Of a stretch of 64,000 bases of DNA, positions 25,930 to 32,108 are shown in pieces. The stretch is taken from IMG/VR virus record IMGVR_UViG_3300032272_000007, positions 1 through 64,000 of that record; one strand, 5' to 3'. The notes below the pieces were generated by a model. That model was given only the letters and a program-made list of their open reading frames with translations. It was not told the origin of the DNA and searched no databases. This DNA is from a virus. Its lineage: Duplodnaviria > Caudoviricetes. How positions within the stretch are numbered: the first letter of the stretch is position 1; each line of letters opens with the position of its first letter. The translations under genes and the position numbers were made by a program.

Positions 25930-26112
25930 TCATTTTCCCGTCATTTTCTTCTTGAATTCCATCAGCTTGTCAACAGCATCCAGCTCCAGGCTTACTACTG
26001 GAGGGTTGTTGTGGTCATTTACCATTAATTCAATCGAAAACCCAGTAAAATGGGCGTATGCTCCGTCTCCAAGATGGACGGAGTTGGTTTCGTCTCTCAT
26101 TCTTCGAACCAA
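25930..26112 (-). CDS. Hypothetical protein
   Basis: HLGDGAYAHF motif typical of small phage proteins. Confidence 0.6.
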   Translation of the reverse strand: MVRRMRDETNSVHLGDGAYAHFTGFSIELMVNDHNNPPVVSLELDAVDKLMEFKKKMTGK

Positions 26113-26546
26113 GATACGTTATCAATAAATTCAACCGAACATCCTCCTGAAATACAATCAAGATCGATTGTGGCTATCTCCGTATAACCATCATTGGATC
26201 TTATGTAGGCATAAATGATAAGTTTCCCTGAATCGATCCCGTCAATATCAGCTGTTATGCTCGTGGATCCATCGGGTAGGATTCTTCCAGAAAGGGTTAC
26301 ATCACCGATTTCGTCAGGGGTATTCAATGCATCTGAAAATACTACTGCAGAAAACTGATTGCTGTACCTTTCTGATATATTGATCAGTCCAATACCGATC
26401 GCGGAATCAGAAGGTCCGGAATCTGGGGTGATCAACGCAATGTTGTATCCATAGATAGGACCAGGTAACTCAGGCCCATTGTCACAAGAAAAAAGAGTTG
26501 TGGCTAATAAAGCCAGTAGAAGTACTGTTGTTTTGAAAGATTTCAT
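26097..26546 (-). CDS. Lipoprotein
   Basis: MKSFKTTVLLLALLATTLFS-CD lipobox; beta-rich mature part. Confidence 0.8.
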   Translation of the reverse strand: MKSFKTTVLLLALLATTLFSCDNGPELPGPIYGYNIALITPDSGPSDSAIGIGLINISERYSNQFSAVVFSDALNTPDEIGDVTLSGRILPDGSTSITADIDGIDSGKLIIYAYIRSNDGYTEIATIDLDCISGGCSVEFIDNVSWFEE

Positions 26547-26581
26547 AATTTTATGTTTAAAGTTTATGAGGTTAAATATAG

Positions 26582-26613
26582 TTTGGTTTATTGATATAAT
26601 CAAATTATATTTG
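26582..26613 (+). promoter_or_regulatory. Promoter TTTG-N20-TATATTTG for tRNA-Met and the downstream RNA
   Basis: Consensus elements 16 nt upstream of the tRNA. Confidence 0.75.
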
Positions 26614-26629
26614 ATTTAAGTAAGTATAT

Positions 26630-26702
26630 AGCGCTGTAGAGCAGATGGTAGCTCGCTAGGCTCATAACCTAGAGGTCGCCGGTTCGAGTCCGGCTGGCGC
26701 TA
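26630..26702 (+). tRNA. tRNA with CAT anticodon (Met or Ile2)
   Basis: Cloverleaf: CTAGG-CTCATAA-CCTAG anticodon arm, GCCGG-TTCGAGT-CCGGC T arm; no encoded CCA. Confidence 0.93.
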
Positions 26703-26990
26703 CATAAACCAGAGAAGGGGGATGTAAGACGTGCACAGCATCCCCCGCAGAAATCAAAGGCGGAACGAACGCCAATGGGACAGCGGACATTGAATAACCA
26801 TTGGAACTGAGATTTCCTAGCCACCGAAAGGTGTTTAAGCCGACTGAATCAAATCAATTAGATGATATGCCCCTATCCGCTGGGGGGCTTTGTTGAGAGA
26901 TTCGAAGACAACCATTTGTAAGACAGGCCAGACGTAGAGCTGGTATCTCGATTAACAATAGAAAAGGGGCAGTATATCTGCCCCTTATTT
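26703..26990 (+). ncRNA. Candidate structured ncRNA
   Basis: ORF-free, multiple helices, GNRA loop, loop-loop complementarity, ends in a terminator. Confidence 0.55.
26964..26990 (+). terminator. Intrinsic (probably bidirectional) terminator
   Basis: AAGGGGCAG-TATAT-CTGCCCCTT. Confidence 0.8.
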
Positions 26991-27039
26991 CTTCCCAAAC
27001 TGGGTATTTACTTTCCGAACGACCTTTATTTTTTCATAG

Positions 27040-27399
27040 CTATTTCTGGTATGTTCCTTCTACATCTCGGCTTTTCCGATCAATCTGGCGCTGCAGTAGC
27101 CATTGTTGCGCCTCCTGGAGCTTAGTGATCACCAATGCACCTTCACGGCTAGGCACTAGTCCGTTTTTGTATTGAAGGTCATGGATCATTACAGCAAGTA
27201 GGTGCTCGTGTAGCGTTCCTTCACGTTTTTCTACCTCCTCCTCATTTACTTTGGATCCACGGACGAAATTTAGCCGTTGTTGCGCCGCTGGATCTTCCAC
27301 ATATTCAAGGCCTTTTCCATCCACTACTCTGTAGACTGGAAGTAAGTAAGACGTTCCTTCTTCGAGAATTTCGAAGTCATTTTTCAAATCGATTTCCAT
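27040..27399 (-). CDS. tad1: Tad1-family anti-Thoeris/anti-CBASS sponge homolog
   Basis: F.RG...G.....LL...L...SRE.A...T...EA..W...R..DR..R.V.GT pattern matches the Tad1 C-terminal hairpin as recalled from memory. Confidence 0.8.
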   Translation of the reverse strand: MEIDLKNDFEILEEGTSYLLPVYRVVDGKGLEYVEDPAAQQRLNFVRGSKVNEEEVEKREGTLHEHLLAVMIHDLQYKNGLVPSREGALVITKLQEAQQWLLQRQIDRKSRDVEGTYQK

Positions 27400-27504
27400 T
27401 GTATATAATATTTAATTGTTAAAAATTCAATCTATAAAGCCGGATCCCTATTGCAGCAACTCCAACGGTTGCGGCTACTGTATTTTTTAGAAAGTCGCGT
27501 CTTT

Positions 27505-27687
27505 TCATATCCCAGTCTTTTGTTCGTACCGTGTAATCAGCACTAAAATGAAAGAGTGGTAGTTCTTTGCTATCACGGGATTTCCTGTTAAGATGTATTC
27601 TAGCGGGCTCAGAACCATTAAGATGAGAAAAATGACAAATGCCACGATTAATAACAGAATGCCGATGATTCTAAATAGTATTTTCAT
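27505..27687 (-). CDS. Small membrane protein
   Basis: Long hydrophobic N-terminal helix. Confidence 0.65.
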   Translation of the reverse strand: MKILFRIIGILLLIVAFVIFLILMVLSPLEYILTGNPVIAKNYHSFILVLITRYEQKTGI

Positions 27688-27881
27688 TCTTCCAGTAACA
27701 GTTTTGCTGCTTTTTCAAAGGTTTCTCCAGTGAATTTTTCATCTCCAGTGGTCTCAAGTAGTTCGAATGCCTGCGGATTTTGGTCTAAAATATCCCTTTT
27801 CAGAAGTTGGACCAACTCATCATGATCACCTTGAGAATTCGCTATTAACCATTGATGGTAAGCTGTCTTTTCTTTTTCCAT
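27684..27881 (-). CDS. Hypothetical protein
   Basis: Coupled ORF. Confidence 0.6.
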   Translation of the reverse strand: MEKEKTAYHQWLIANSQGDHDELVQLLKRDILDQNPQAFELLETTGDEKFTGETFEKAAKLLLEE

Positions 27882-27966
27882 TACTTATTTGGGTTATAGC
27901 CACATTCTCCACAATCACCCCCTTGGTAGTAGGGGTTTCCGCAGCAGTGGCAAAAGTCTGATTTTT

Positions 27967-28239
27967 TCATTCTGATTTGTAGTTAATGCTCTCCTGAGAG
28001 CTTTCTAGTAGGTCGAATACCTTGAAAATGGTTTCTCCAGCGAATCCCCTCTCAAATTCAAATACTGCAGTCTGAATCCTGGCGTACTGAAACGTCTTTC
28101 GGAAGAATGGTCCTTTGCGTTACTCATGTTTTACGTTTACCGTTGGAAATACAACAAATTCAGCATTCAATTTTTTCACCTCTTCACGAAGCTGGAGGAG
28201 CTCCTGGTAATCCTCCAGTGGTATCTTTGCGTGGAACAT
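27967..28239 (-). pseudogene. 90-codon gene interrupted by an in-frame TAA
   Basis: MFHAKIPLE...NVKHE*RKGPFFRKTFQY...INYKSE in one frame; stop at 28120-28122. Confidence 0.6.
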
Positions 28240-28527
28240 CTACATTGGCAAGTTGAAGTTCTCCATAATTCGTTCAATTTGAGCTTGTAAGTAGTGGATC
28301 TCGGATTCTAGTTCCTCTATAGCTGCAATATGCCTCGGAAATTGGCTGTTGTTATCTGTTGAATCTGGGGTGGGTTCTTTCTGAATAGCATTATCAAAAA
28401 TCTCATTGGTTAAATTGTGTAAGTTTTGATTAACATTACTGATTCTATCCCGACAGCTAATAACTTTTTCAGTCTGCTCTACAATAGAGGCTAGTTTTGG
28501 TGATTTTGCATCAATTAAATCCTTCAT
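28240..28527 (-). CDS. Coiled-coil hypothetical protein
   Basis: 95-aa ORF. Confidence 0.7.
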   Translation of the reverse strand: MKDLIDAKSPKLASIVEQTEKVISCRDRISNVNQNLHNLTNEIFDNAIQKEPTPDSTDNNSQFPRHIAAIEELESEIHYLQAQIERIMENFNLPM

Positions 28528-28549
28528 TTTTATAAATTTAGAGTGTTAG

Positions 28550-28622
28550 AGACGATAACAGGGCTCGAACCTGTGATCAATGTTTTGCAGACATTCGCCT
28601 TGACCAACTTGGCTATATCGTC
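28550..28622 (-). tRNA. tRNA-Cys(GCA)
   Basis: GACGATA/TATCGTC acceptor stem, AATGT-CTGCAAA-ACATT anticodon arm, TTCGA T loop. Confidence 0.93.
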
Positions 28623-28665
28623 TAAAAGGGAAGAGCTCACTACACTCTTCCCACAGTTATGCTGA

Positions 28666-29331
28666 CTAATCAGCAGAAAGTGATTTCACTACAGCTATGA
28701 ATAGATCATCTTTGTAGCGTTGTGATTCAGGGAGATCGGCGTAAGGAACGATGCACGGGTGCAATTTCTTCTCAGGATCTTTCTCCTCACCGTATTTCCA
28801 ACCTTCATCTACCTTATCCTTCATCCAGTTGTTGTGAAGTGAATCAGGCCCAGCTTTTGGGTTCTCCAAACGGAAAATTACACCCTTAACAGCGCTCTCT
28901 TTTTGCCAATCTGGTGCCTTTTCCCAAGTTAGCTGAGAATTGTCACCGATCGATTGGCAATAAGTTCTGTTGACTTCGTGGCAGGTTTCGGCGATCTTAG
29001 CAATGAAAGCGGCTTTTTTAGCCGCCAGGTGTTCTTTATCATCAGCTTTGCCCTTCTTTTCATCTTTATCGGCTGTAACTTTCGTATTACCAGCATCAAA
29101 AACATCTCCAGGAGACCATGACTGGTAACCATCTTCATAAACCACAAAGTATCCTCCAGCTATTGGATTATGCTTTTTGACATATAAATGAGAAACTGCG
29201 AACTTTTTACCCTTTGAGGGAGTGATAATTGCAGAACCGCCGGGTTTTAGCTTAACGGATTTGATTTTACAAGCACGAACCACCTTGTGGCTTCTGTACT
29301 CCTGTAATTTTGAAACATCTAATGGATCCAT
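28666..29331 (-). CDS. Two-domain protein: N-terminal YEDGYxSWSP (Tad2-like) domain plus C-terminal RyR domain
   Basis: GGYFVVYEDGYQSWSPGDVF; AETCHEVN...HNNWMKDKVDEGWKYG.EKDPEKKLHPCIVPYADLPESQRYKD. Confidence 0.8.
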   Translation of the reverse strand: MDPLDVSKLQEYRSHKVVRACKIKSVKLKPGGSAIITPSKGKKFAVSHLYVKKHNPIAGGYFVVYEDGYQSWSPGDVFDAGNTKVTADKDEKKGKADDKEHLAAKKAAFIAKIAETCHEVNRTYCQSIGDNSQLTWEKAPDWQKESAVKGVIFRLENPKAGPDSLHNNWMKDKVDEGWKYGEEKDPEKKLHPCIVPYADLPESQRYKDDLFIAVVKSLSAD

Positions 29332-29481
29332 ATAATTTTAATTTTTGATTAATTCTTTGCAAGGTAAATTCTTTTTTATTTCCAGCTCCTTCTGCCCCAC
29401 TGGCCATATTTTGCAGATACACTCCCTTTTAGGGTCTCTCTTGCATAGTGGGGCGTGTGGGCAGAAAAACTTTACCATAAC

Positions 29482-29497
29482 TGTTTCACGTGAAACA
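29482..29497. promoter_or_regulatory. parS: Canonical parS centromere site TGTTTCACGTGAAACA
   Basis: Perfect 16-bp palindrome matching the bacterial parS consensus, occupying a 21-nt intergenic gap. Confidence 0.85.
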
Positions 29498-29499
29498 CT

Positions 29500-29724
29500 T
29501 TACACTTTCTGAGGACCATGTGCCATACTACCATCTAATCTACTGAATGGCTGATTCTCCTTTATCGGAGGTAAGGACATACACTTACGAAGCACATTCA
29601 TTCCCTCCCTGATTTCTATCTCGTTCTTTTTTAGCTTCTTACGCATATAAGGGGTGGTCTGCACCCGTATTTCATACTGAACTAGGCTTAATTTCTCTTC
29701 AAGAATTTCAATTGCTGCTTTCAT
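29500..29724 (-). CDS. Hypothetical protein (MKAAIEILEEK...)
   Basis: ATG downstream of the leftward promoter. Confidence 0.65.
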   Translation of the reverse strand: MKAAIEILEEKLSLVQYEIRVQTTPYMRKKLKKNEIEIREGMNVLRKCMSLPPIKENQPFSRLDGSMAHGPQKV

Positions 29725-29745
29725 AAGGACTGAATCATTTAAAAT

Positions 29746-29777
29746 CAAATATAGTTTGATGATGTAGATAAAAACAA
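29746..29777 (-). promoter_or_regulatory. Leftward promoter TTG-N21-TATATTTG at the transcription divergence point
   Basis: Consensus elements; strand switch at about 29750-29809. Confidence 0.7.
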
Positions 29778-29808
29778 GAGATTGTCAAATTATTTTTAAT
29801 TTAGCTGC

Positions 29809-30630
29809 ATGAAGTTCATCTATGACTATGCGGTCGTTAAATTCGACAAACTAATACGGAATGAATCCGAAGTATCTGGAGCAAACGGACAAAAAATACT
29901 TCTAGCAATGGCTAAGGAGATGGAGCGCTATGTGCACAATGAGGGAACGGTCGTAAGCGTTCCAGATAAACTATCTGATAGTAAAGTCTTTGCTTTCAAC
30001 AGGATGGGGCCTCCTTTATACTATCGATCCAGCCCACAGGAGGTAACATGGCTTGATGTTGTTCCAATGTCCATTAAGGCTGGGGATAAGGTGTATTGCC
30101 ATCATAATGCAGTAATGAATGCCCTAAAAGACTCCGAAGATGTAATACTCAAAGAGGAGTACAACAAAGAGCGGAAGGAAACAACTGTTTGGATCAAAGT
30201 GCTAATTACTGATATTTTCTGTGCGGAGCGGAAAGGAAAACTTTTCCCTAACGCTACTTGGACATTGGTTAAGCCTGATATGGAAACATGGGAGGATATA
30301 TTAGTTCCCATTCCTGAAATAGACCCACTAACTGGTCAGCAGAAGGTGGAACTAACCAAAAAAATGGATAAAGCTGGGATCATGCAGACTACTCCGGTAC
30401 CAAAATGGTTACCAAAGGAGAAGTGGATACAAACGAAACAGGCACCAGAAGCAAAATTTCTTAGAGGGTTCATTGAAGCTATTGGAGATCCGTTGATTGG
30501 AGATATTAAAGACCTTGAAAAAGGAGATCACATCATTTTTAGAAATTTCGTTGATTTTGAGGTTAGCATTGGTGGTGTTAAATATTATTTGATGAAACAG
30601 ATGAATATTAGAGGGGTTATTGAAAAATAA
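29809..30630 (+). CDS. Tandem GroES-like co-chaperonin
   Basis: Two Cpn10-like units: GTVVSVP...IKAGDKVY and GFIEAIG...LEKGDHIIF...YYLMKQMNIRGVI. Confidence 0.75.
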   Translation: MKFIYDYAVVKFDKLIRNESEVSGANGQKILLAMAKEMERYVHNEGTVVSVPDKLSDSKVFAFNRMGPPLYYRSSPQEVTWLDVVPMSIKAGDKVYCHHNAVMNALKDSEDVILKEEYNKERKETTVWIKVLITDIFCAERKGKLFPNATWTLVKPDMETWEDILVPIPEIDPLTGQQKVELTKKMDKAGIMQTTPVPKWLPKEKWIQTKQAPEAKFLRGFIEAIGDPLIGDIKDLEKGDHIIFRNFVDFEVSIGGVKYYLMKQMNIRGVIEK

Positions 30631-30696
30631 TCTACCTTTGGATTTCGCCTCTCAAGCCTTCACTGGCTGAATCATAATGTGAGGAGTGTTTGAAGT

Positions 30697-30983
30697 AAAA
30701 CCCTTGGATCCATTCAGGGGTTTTTTTGTACCTTAGCACTGGTGGTTTATTTTTTCAAGGCTCAGTATGAGTTTTTAAGTATGAGCGTCAAAACCTCTGG
30801 GATTTTCTCAGAGGTTTTATTTTCGAGAGGATCAGGATGTTGAGATCAAGCATTCGTGGGAGTGGTTGAAGGCCACAGCTGGGCAATTCTCTTTGCAAGA
30901 TCATCCAGCCGTTCTGAAAAAGCCCACAGTTGAATTATGCCCTCTCTGCAAGGAAGTCCCAGCGCTACTATACTGGGCTTTCT
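30697..30983 (+). terminator. Cluster of three terminator-like hairpins
   Basis: AAAACCC..GGGGTTTT (30697), AAAACCTCTG..CAGAGGTTTT (30790), AGTCCCAG..CTGGGCTT (30954). Confidence 0.6.
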
Positions 30984-31144
30984 TGTTTTTCTAATCCCCT
31001 TTGTATCCCCTCAGTATGGTCATACTAAGGGGATGTATATCCCCTTTGCATCCCCGCTTGTATGGTATTGATATACTATAACAATACACTATTAATACAA
31101 TATCTACTAGTAGCAGTAAGGAGAATCAAATTATATTTGTTTCT

Positions 31145-31429
31145 ATGGAAACAAATATAAAACCCAGATTCGATTGCGCTCTTGTTGAATTACTACCTGA
31201 TAAAGATCATTTCAGTAAAGATGCGGACATTATTAAACCAGACAATGCTAAAAACTCTGGTAAGATGCTTAGAGGTAAAGTTCTAAGATTTGGATCTAGC
31301 TGCGAGGGATTGACGGAAGGAATGATCGTTGGTTTCCGGAATGGAGCTGGAGAGAAAGACATCGATGCTGAAAATGCCAATTTAATGTTGATACGCGATA
31401 AAGACCTAATGATCACCTATGACGACTGA
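31145..31429 (+). CDS. groES: GroES (Cpn10)-like co-chaperonin
   Basis: IKPRFDCALVE...IIKPDNAK...GKVLRFG...GMIV.F...LMLIRDKDLM. Confidence 0.75.
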   Translation: METNIKPRFDCALVELLPDKDHFSKDADIIKPDNAKNSGKMLRGKVLRFGSSCEGLTEGMIVGFRNGAGEKDIDAENANLMLIRDKDLMITYDD

Positions 31430-32108
31430 AACCGAGGAGCGATTTAGTAAGCTCAGGTTTCCTGTGCATAAAATACCGCCTGAGAAAGATCTTACTCAGG
31501 CGGTACCTAATCTATTTGTGTACAATGAATTCAAGAAGTTCGCCCATGAGCATAAATCACTCATCATTCGATACATCTGCTTTTTGTATGATCCAGGATC
31601 TGACCTCATCACTGACTTTCAAGAAGACATGGAAGCCAGACGAAACGCTGCTGCAGTTGCGGCGGGAATAGAAAGAAATGGAGATAAGTGGCCTAAGTGG
31701 TTTGAACTATCCATCAACTTTGAAAAAGAGGAGGTTAAAAAAGTTTTAGTAGAAGAGGGTACTGACGATTCAAAACCCATATACAAAAACGAGAGGAAAA
31801 TTACTCGAGACAAGGATTTGATCATGATGATCCTACGTTTCATTAGAATTTTCCGAAATAGAATTTGGATTGAGATCTGCACCCTTGAGGTGGAATACGA
31901 TCGTATGACCAAACAGCGATGGGAAGGAGTTGGACTTAATGATCCACAGAAAATCAAGCAGGCGGCTGATTTATCTAATGTTTGTGATGGTCACCTGGTA
32001 AAGTTGAATTCCTTCTACAATGAATTTTTTGGAGACAAGGATCTTGAGGATAATGTTATTGAAATGATGACTCCTGAAAATTTAGATAGACTTAGAAAAA
32101 GCGGATAA
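31419..32108 (+). CDS. Probable terminase small subunit
   Basis: Coupled immediately upstream of TerL; helical. Confidence 0.5.
   Translation: MTTETEERFSKLRFPVHKIPPEKDLTQAVPNLFVYNEFKKFAHEHKSLIIRYICFLYDPGSDLITDFQEDMEARRNAAAVAAGIERNGDKWPKWFELSINFEKEEVKKVLVEEGTDDSKPIYKNERKITRDKDLIMMILRFIRIFRNRIWIEICTLEVEYDRMTKQRWEGVGLNDPQKIKQAADLSNVCDGHLVKLNSFYNEFFGDKDLEDNVIEMMTPENLDRLRKSG

Follow-up and report, generated by a model that had tools for sequence, protein, structure and literature searches.

A phage RyR protein of the RyDEP family carries a widespread N-terminal beta-barrel that is a candidate for a new signal-binding family

The gene considered here lies in a stretch of 64,000 nucleotides (the window) of the IMG/VR virus record IMGVR_UViG_3300032272_000007, a record of 74,756 bp estimated to be 93% complete. 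It is an intact open reading frame encoding a protein of 221 amino acids, named P0001 in this study, in which an N-terminal beta-barrel domain (the N-domain) is joined by a charged linker to a ryanodine receptor repeat (RyR) domain. The gene is a real two-domain anti-defence candidate, and the interpretation that we consider probable is that of an anti-Thoeris protein of the RyDEP family (RyR-domain Defense Evasion Protein; Lopez Rivera et al., bioRxiv 10.64898/2026.05.28.727677, PMC13232231) to which a separate N-terminal module would add a second anti-signalling activity. A previous sequence-only reading of this DNA had implicated RyR domains in anti-defence as a novelty; the implication is correct, but it was already published in May 2026 under the name RyDEP, with a protein of the same architecture tested through its RyR half. 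The N-domain is the part that keeps its interest, as a good candidate for the founder of a signal-binding family not described before.

The RyDEP of mycobacteriophage DyoEdafos, gp78, is a glycosidase opening the ribose-ribose bond of 2'cADPR and 3'cADPR (cADPR, cyclic ADP-ribose), which are signals of the Thoeris defence; its residues H75 and D117 form the catalytic dyad and contact the ribose, W78 stacks on the adenine and H100 contacts the phosphates (PMC13232231). Six of the eight viral RyR homologues assayed in the same work bind 2'/3'cADPR without cleaving it, the mycobacteriophage enzyme being the only one of the nine proteins tested to show cleavage, and the proteins H4 and H7 bind 3'cADPR with a nanomolar dissociation constant and rescued phage from type I Thoeris (PMC13232231). 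The binding of an immune second messenger by the RyR domain, which the sequence-only reading had put forward, has in this way been demonstrated experimentally for the family.

As had been recognised from the sequence, the C-terminal part of P0001 is a RyR domain. PF02026 matched it at E 5.5e-13 with 49.4 bits, above the cut-off of 27.4, and again with 47.3 bits when the genome was searched; the sequence search of the PDB returned solved RyR repeats down to an E value of 1.2e-23, including the bacterial entries 3nrt and 6uag, together with 35tm_A, a 139-residue 'RyR domain-containing protein' that is probably the DyoEdafos gp78 RyDEP. The AlphaFold2 (AF2) model of the full-length protein has a mean predicted local distance difference test score (pLDDT) of 94.3, and the four-helix fold of the RyR repeat was found in it (helices 90-127, 141-156, 162-175 and 202-218, pLDDT 94), with RyR repeats of Bacteroides and human origin as Foldseek matches (E between 1e-5 and 1e-3). 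The charged linker noticed earlier is indeed a stretch rich in Lys, Asp and Glu (about residues 86-102); it is modelled as the start of the single long helix 90-127 that enters RyR helix alpha1, with the pLDDT falling to 69-80 across residues 81-100 of the full-length model.

To compare the pocket residues, P0001 was aligned with the Nepra H7-type protein, DyoEdafos gp78 and seven metagenomic relatives. The RyDEP residues H75, W78, H100, K116 and D117 are invariant in this alignment and correspond to H166, W169, H191, K207 and D208 of P0001, so all four ligand or catalytic residues of the RyDEP (H166, W169, H191 and D208 in our numbering) are kept, and H166, W169, H191 and K207-D208 are predicted to form a cADPR pocket. 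Identity over the RyR part amounts to 49.6% with the H7-type protein, compared with 26.5% with the DyoEdafos glycosidase. Ser146 of P0001 aligns with Gln54 of the RyDEP, and serine occupies this position in all nine aligned sequences other than DyoEdafos, the H7-like protein included. Gln54 is present only in the cleaving RyDEP, DyoEdafos gp78, and the Gln/Ser alternative may mark enzyme versus sponge, as a discriminator that is still unvalidated; the available text of the RyDEP preprint, where Gln54 was mutated, is silent on whether catalysis needs this residue. RyR domains were also found fused to a C-terminal Acb2/Tad1 hairpin (PF24729), in P0006 (191 amino acids, 27.8 bits) and in P0033 (201 amino acids, 30.3 bits), a pairing that is not mentioned in the available text of the preprint.

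The two-domain architecture is not restricted to the phage of the window. Full-length homologues of P0001 were found in metagenomes (P0002, with 51% identity, P0003 and P0005) and, at about 40% identity, in phages of Pectobacterium, Yersinia and E. coli, the cultured phages with full-length relatives being Pectobacterium CB1, CB3, CB4, Nepra and phiA41, Yersinia TG1 and E. coli 4HA13; a coverage of at least 80% was reached in 14 of the 331 records having a RyR match. The published protein H7 (UniProt A0A2P0PB48, from a Pectobacterium phage), for which an identical-looking gene exists in phage Nepra (AWD92553.1), shares with P0001 the N-terminal beta domain followed by RyR, about 40% identity over the full length, every ligand residue and, for its gene, a position among early or DNA-metabolism genes. 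It differs by a divergent N-domain, with a longer SKDTPEEYHS stretch where P0001 has YEDGYQS, by having no long charged linker, and by its origin, an N4-like phage of Enterobacterales, whereas P0001 comes from a Flavobacteriia-type phage. A further difference is that H7 was tested through its RyR part alone, the only part cloned for the assays (PMC13232231 supplementary table), which makes the N-domain dispensable for the RyR activity of H7; the N-domain was cut away in the sole experiment performed on a protein of the P0001 architecture. DyoEdafos gp78 (YP_010013426.1) has in common with P0001 the RyR/R12-like fold, the equivalents of H75, W78, H100 and D117 and, on our interpretation, the anti-Thoeris role, but it is a single-domain glycosidase of 139 residues with Gln54, encoded within a NARP1 NAD-salvage operon, whereas P0001 has the additional N-domain and a Tad1 neighbour instead of NARP1 genes.

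In the mechanism that we propose, the C-terminal RyR/R12-like domain would dimerise, as expected by homology, and each protomer would hold one TIR-made cyclic ADP-ribose (3'cADPR or 2'cADPR) in the H166/W169/H191/D208 pocket, a capture of the signal that would prevent activation of the Thoeris effector ThsA. The domain would thus act by sequestration and not as a glycosidase: P0001 is predicted to be a sponge-type RyDEP because its RyR part is nearer to the H7-type protein than to the glycosidase, because it has Ser146 in place of Gln54 and because six of the eight homologues bind without cleavage. The N-terminal 88 residues would form a self-sufficient small beta-barrel, probably homodimeric and unnecessary for the RyR function, which would bind or cleave a different small-molecule signal, giving a bifunctional protein comparable to the Acb4-Tad2 fusions. 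The RyR gene and a Tad1 sponge gene would be expressed from one leftward, probably early, unit.

Two other functions can be considered for the RyR domain, and some of the data weigh against our proposal. P0001 could be a glycosidase-type RyDEP hydrolysing the ribose-ribose bond of 2'/3'cADPR to give linear ADP-ribose, as the conservation of the H/D catalytic dyad and of all the DyoEdafos ligand residues (H166, D208, W169 and H191) would allow; however, the same residues are also kept in homologues that bind without cleavage, so the H166/D208 dyad does not discriminate the glycosidase subtype. Since the only cleaving protein among the nine tested is the mycobacteriophage enzyme, from which the RyR part of P0001 is much more distant than from the sponge-type H7 (26.5% against about 50% identity), since Ser146 replaces Gln54, and since the P0001 gene is flanked by small open reading frames, a tRNA gene and Tad1 and by none of the NARP1 NAD-salvage genes (Adps, Namat), we regard a glycosidase as improbable. 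Still less probable, in our view, is a non-immune role in which the RyR domain would bind ATP, ADP or another adenine nucleotide to control metabolism, a function that has been suggested for RyR proteins of bacteria. The R12 domains of RyR do bind ATP analogues and ADP (PDB 6uhh, 9l9b, 9l90), and two of the eight phage homologues tested did not bind the cADPR signals (PMC13232231), but the RyR gene appears to lie in one unit with a Tad1 sponge gene, RyR domains are fused to Acb2/Tad1 hairpins in P0006 and P0033, and the closest tested relatives are anti-Thoeris proteins. The unit itself is less certain on the side of its promoter, promoter-like sites being at chance expectation in the region and the match (Table 1) being to the consensus sigma-70 promoter, whereas the probable host phylum uses other promoters.

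The more useful lead given by P0001 is its N-domain, which belongs to thousands of phage protein clusters and whose nameable partners are almost always proven sponge families. A profile of this domain was built from short stand-alone homologues of 86-105 amino acids and searched against 1.84 billion proteins; at E<=1e-3 it retrieved 5,652 representatives of clusters formed at 50% identity (3,725 of them at E<=1e-10), defining a distinct beta-barrel of about 85 amino acids. The domain is autonomous, the stand-alone homologues having 82-105 amino acids, and among the best 150 representatives it is N-terminal in 69, stand-alone in 47, C-terminal in 27 and tandem or multiple in 7. No Pfam family covers it in any of the 148 members compared, and NCBIfam gave no match for P0001 or for the Tad1-like protein encoded nearby. 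Its PHROG matches (11049, 9467, 872 and 32732) are all of unknown function, and its ESM Atlas neighbours are unnamed clusters, 76-93% viral, that have no Pfam family.

The motif of the GY.V.YEDGY.SWSP..F type described earlier for this domain is present and occupies residues 60-78 of P0001 (GYFVVYEDGYQSWSPGDVF). It is part of a larger conserved set comprising H15-K16, K53-H54, the stretch G59-G-Y-F-V-V-Y-E-D-G-Y-Q-S-W-S-P74, F78 and G81. The degree of conservation is unusually high: over 148 diverse sequences, K16, A20, I23, Y61, S71, S73, P74, F78 and G81 are invariant, and H15, H54, P56, G59, G60, Y65, D67, G68, Y69, E79 and Y82 are conserved in at least 90%.

In a confident AF2 model, the isolated N-domain folds as a small beta-barrel accompanied by two short helices (pLDDT 92.2, predicted template modelling score 0.81). 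Its best fold match in the PDB, and its closest structural match among the fold-search results, is the OB domain of the Dec protein of phage L (6e3c), with a Foldseek E of 5.5e-4 and a TMq of 0.67; VIA-align gave for the same pair a Z of 7.4, a root mean square deviation of 3.3 and 24% identity over 85 aligned residues, a Z below 8 being one that can reflect a common arrangement. The further matches were generic small barrels with Z of 5.3 or below, and the sequence profile of the N-domain found no match in the PDB at E<=10. Because of this absence of a profile match and of the Z below 8, the resemblance to Dec is treated as one of fold only. Dec itself is a late protein that cements the capsid as a trimer and has a beta-helix at its C-terminus; its gene context is different, and binding to a capsid does not explain the polar motif of the N-domain. 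In BFVD, the matches were uncharacterised phage proteins, among them a MazG fusion of Vibrio phage KF6 and the RyR protein of Yersinia phage TG1. The N-domain protein of Pseudomonas phage Jeremy (PV565041.1, 2986-3480) carries the label 'capsid decoration protein' although its gene lies among small non-structural genes beside a DNA methylase; the label probably reflects the resemblance to the Dec fold and could mislead. In Escherichia phage CurroJimenez_Bas106 (PQ850599.1, 3001-3288), a BASEL coliphage, the stand-alone 95-residue N-domain protein Bas106_0070 is encoded in an accessory slot after the lysis genes and would offer a convenient model for testing the N-domain.

The N-domain is predicted from modelling to form a homodimer. 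The dimer model obtained a score of 0.67, against 0.00 for the best of three controls; of 30 proteins whose solved structure is a pair of one chain, 20 attained this mark, as did 1 of 23 proteins with a single-chain structure, counts that are only rough for this comparison because our own alignment was used. The contacts agreed by at least 95% between runs, with a partner pLDDT of 86. The modelled interface involves the N-terminal strand 8-21 and residues 40-45, 64-71 and 78-85, and includes H15, K16, H54, D67, Y69, S71 and Y82. Such a dimer would fit all the known partners of the N-domain, that is, the dimers of RyDEP and Sequestin, the tetramers of Tad2 and Acb4, and the Tad1 and Acb2 hexamers of dimers.

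Among the 148 members, the Pfam-named fusion partners of the N-domain are the Acb2/Tad1 hairpin PF24729 (5 members), the Tad2-like domain PF11195 (4), crAss001_48 PF21825 (4), Phage_gp49_66 PF13876 (1) and RyR PF02026 (1), examples of sponge fusions being P0063, P0064, P0067-P0071 and P0073. PF21825 corresponds to the Sequestin sponges of 3'cADPR and PF13876 to the cyclic-dinucleotide sponge Acb4, both experimentally proven (Tal et al. 2025, PMC12265669). The frequent fusion of sponge domains to one another, invoked in the sequence-only reading, is supported by the same study, in which Sequestin was discovered through a search for Pfam families that occur in fusions with Tad2 and Acb4 (PMC12265669); since the N-domain has no Pfam model, such a survey could not see it. 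The fused sponges Acb4-Tad2 (Pasteurella phage Pm86), Tad2-Sequestin and Sequestin-Acb4 resemble P0001 by carrying, in one polypeptide, two small modules that oligomerise separately and act, or in our case would act, against signalling (PMC12265669), and the N-domain is found fused to each of the families Acb4, Tad2 and Sequestin; they differ in that both of their halves are proven sponges, whereas one half of P0001 is a domain that has no Pfam model. The N-domain shows some of the traits of sponges as taken from Tal et al. 2025, being short (about 100 amino acids or less) and stand-alone in phages, homo-oligomeric (in the model) and recurrently fused to proven sponges; the same list also names a positively charged pocket between protomers. 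In 33 Vibrio phage records, for example MF754115.1 (KF5) and NC_041910.1 (SSP002), it lies inside proteins annotated as MazG-like pyrophosphatases, the KF6 protein having 394 amino acids with the N-domain at about 120-211 (phrog_37613), and these fusions link it to a nucleotide-hydrolysing partner. The largest cluster of unnamed partners has five members (P0086, P0091, P0109, P0151 and P0156), a D-Y-A-W-T-W-H-C-N-I-A motif and no Pfam match, and may be another anti-defence module.

Taken together, the N-domain is an autonomous module of very wide distribution, which is probably a dimer and is fused by preference to proven sponges. It may found a new and very large phage family that would bind or cleave a bacterial immune signal as a homodimer, alone or in fusions, with the pattern H-K ... 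K-H-x-P ... G-G-Y-F-V-V-Y-E-D-G-Y-x-S-x-S-P ... F-E-x-G-Y; we hold this to be a serious possibility, although we place it a little below an even chance. Several observations count against it. Most partner regions are unnamed, the 88 extensions of at least 40 amino acids falling into 71 clusters; among the 148 members the other named partners are DUF2158, DUF551 and a weak repeat match (one each), and partners that are not sponges exist, namely the MazG pyrophosphatase, DUF551 and LysM. In fold, the closest match comes from an OB domain of capsid decoration and not from a ligand binder. By hand count, the modelled dimer interface takes up 40 of 90 residues and holds 14 of the 26 conserved positions where about 12 would be expected, which is no significant enrichment. 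The literature search found no published binding experiment with the N-domain and an immune signalling molecule.

A ligand-free role can also be considered for the N-domain, as a dimerisation, scaffold or solubility module or as a Dec-like OB domain docking onto the capsid, nucleic acid or another phage or host macromolecule. It would agree with the structural match to the capsid-binding domain of Dec, with the predicted dimer, with the great diversity of partners and with the one database record in which a member is named 'capsid decoration protein'. A mere dimerisation tag does not explain, however, that about one third of the representatives are stand-alone proteins of 82-105 amino acids and that some are tandem; a capsid-docking surface would be expected to vary, whereas the polar residues H15, K16, H54, Y61, Y65, D67, Y69, S71 and S73 are kept nearly invariant across thousands of clusters; the genes are found among early or accessory genes, and not in head modules, in the phage of the window, Nepra, Jeremy and Bas106; and the Z of 7.4 is within the range that the tool gives for unrelated small barrels, the sequence profile finding nothing in the PDB. 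We judge the ligand-free role rather doubtful, below signal binding or cleavage, and leave to other small-molecule or nucleic-acid functions the share that remains beyond these two. The last reading to be weighed is the one from which this work started, in which the N-domain was a short Tad2-type sponge and P0001 a Tad2-RyR fusion. Tad2 (DUF2829, PF11195; SPO1 Gp34.65) is likewise a small phage protein, of anti-Thoeris function, that is often found in one polypeptide with the N-domain, and the motif does share polypeptides with true Tad2-like domains in P0067-P0070, but in these the N-domain stands directly before the Tad2-like domain and PF11195 covers residues of about 120-210, outside the N-domain; the earlier association probably arose from this arrangement. 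Tad2 has no sequence or profile relationship to the N-domain: PF11195 gave no match on P0001 at E<=1, the PDB sequence search gave no Tad2 chain at E<=10, and hhalign against the Tad2-like domains of four metagenomic proteins returned a probability of 0.4% (E 0.16). No Tad2 entry is among the matches listed by Foldseek or VIA for the N-domain model, an absence that does not by itself exclude a Tad2 fold. The Tad2-RyR fusion is refuted at the level of sequence and profile, and we consider it very improbable as a whole. Lockin, Acb5, TadIV-1, Sequestin and Acb4 were also tried as the identity of the N-domain and none matched; they do not appear in its fold-search lists either, an absence that does not itself exclude them. 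By description, Lockin is a curved beta hexamer that is absent from INPHARED phages and TadIV-1 is two-helical, and neither fits the N-domain, while Acb5 depends on a conserved Trp and Arg that are not conserved in it.

As regards its significance, P0001 brings, through its RyR part, a marine phage of the Flavobacteriia type into the recently defined RyDEP family. The juxtaposition, in an apparent early unit, of RyDEP and Tad1, two anti-Thoeris proteins, suggests a layered or signal-specific evasion of TIR signalling. If the N-domain does bind or destroy a signal, it would be among the most widespread anti-signalling modules known, its family would be missing from the current lists of sponges because it has no Pfam model, and it might point to a signal or a defence system that has so far had no matching phage inhibitor; P0001 would then be a true dual anti-signalling protein.

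The genomic context of the RyR gene is given in Table 1. Up to about 29750 the genes point leftward, and from 29809 onward the structural genes point rightward, which makes the RyR gene the second substantial gene of the leftward set; leftward from it are found tRNA-Cys, three small open reading frames, the Tad1 gene and a terminator-like hairpin that likely ends the unit, terminator-like sites being in excess in the search (8 found for 3.0 expected). The RyR and Tad1 genes appear to share this one leftward unit, which is probably early. Their closest homologues (P0002 and P0230) are found together on a related metagenomic contig of 18.5 kb.

Table 1. Position of the RyR gene, its parts and the neighbouring features in the window
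Feature	Position	Strand	Description
RyR gene	28666..29331	-	Intact open reading frame, 221 amino acids (P0001): N-terminal beta-barrel domain, charged helical linker and RyR/R12-like (RyDEP-family) domain
N-terminal domain	29068..29331	-	Residues 1-88; widespread phage beta-barrel
Charged linker	29026..29067	-	Lys/Asp/Glu-rich, residues 89-102
RyR/R12-like domain	28675..29025	-	Residues 103-219; PF02026, PDB RyR repeats, Foldseek
Tad1-family gene	27040..27399	-	119 amino acids (P0229); same strand and predicted transcription unit as the RyR gene, 1.27 kb away
tRNA-Cys (GCA)	28549..28622	-	43 nt downstream of the RyR gene stop codon, same strand; ARAGORN
tRNA-Met (CAT)	26630..26703	+	Opposite strand to the surrounding leftward genes, beyond the terminator-like hairpin; ARAGORN
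82-residue open reading frame of unknown function	29500..29748	-	Opens the leftward unit, ahead of the RyR gene; no family match
Sigma-70-like promoter match	29759..29788	-	TTGACA, 18 nt, CATCAT; divergent intergenic region; 10/12 matches
Terminator-like hairpin, bidirectional	26964..26986	.	Stem of 9 bp with 6 GC pairs; follows closely after the Tad1 gene

The Tad1 gene that had been announced at about 1.3 kb is confirmed as a true Tad1 relative on the basis of its sequence. Phmmer matched P0229 with the PDB Tad1 entry 8kbb (E 5.1e-6), and a profile of 21 of its homologues retrieved six sequences from the PDB at E<=0.01, all of them Tad1 (best E 4.7e-9, positions 28-116 of 117); P0229 also matched phrog_2428 (E 1.2e-18), and PF24729 is present in the precomputed annotation of P0229 and of most of its homologues. 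It shares with the Tad1 proteins of known structure (PDB 7uav, 8kbb-8kbh) the C-terminal end of the R-x-V-E-G-T type and the Acb2/Tad1 hairpin, and differs from them by a low pairwise identity and by a local Pfam hairpin score of 18 bits for a cut-off of 27.

Both tRNA genes mentioned in the sequence-only reading were recovered; the idea that they counter anticodon nucleases has nothing for it in our data beyond their presence. The tRNA-Met gene is probably outside the leftward unit and is 89% identical to the tRNA-Met genes of Cellulophaga phages phi4:1 and phi17:2. When the nucleotides 26000-32000 were searched against phages, only this tRNA-Met gene and a short RyR stretch matched, which leaves this region with no close cultured relative. 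The large terminase is closest (23-28% identity) to those of phages of Cellulophaga, Flavobacterium, Maribacter and Tenacibaculum, and the host is for this reason probably a member of the Flavobacteriia.

Two further observations were made around the beginning of the leftward unit. A perfect 16-bp palindrome, TGTTTCACGTGAAACA, which we take to be the canonical chromosomal parS sequence, is located at 29482-29497, upstream of the RyR gene and between the 82-residue open reading frame and the next small one. On the other strand, two products encoded at the start of the rightward set match a phage GroES-like co-chaperonin PHROG, the 273-residue product of 29809-30630 (+) in its C-terminal 40 residues only (E 4e-6) and the 94-residue product of 31145-31429 (+) along its whole length (E 1.6e-3).

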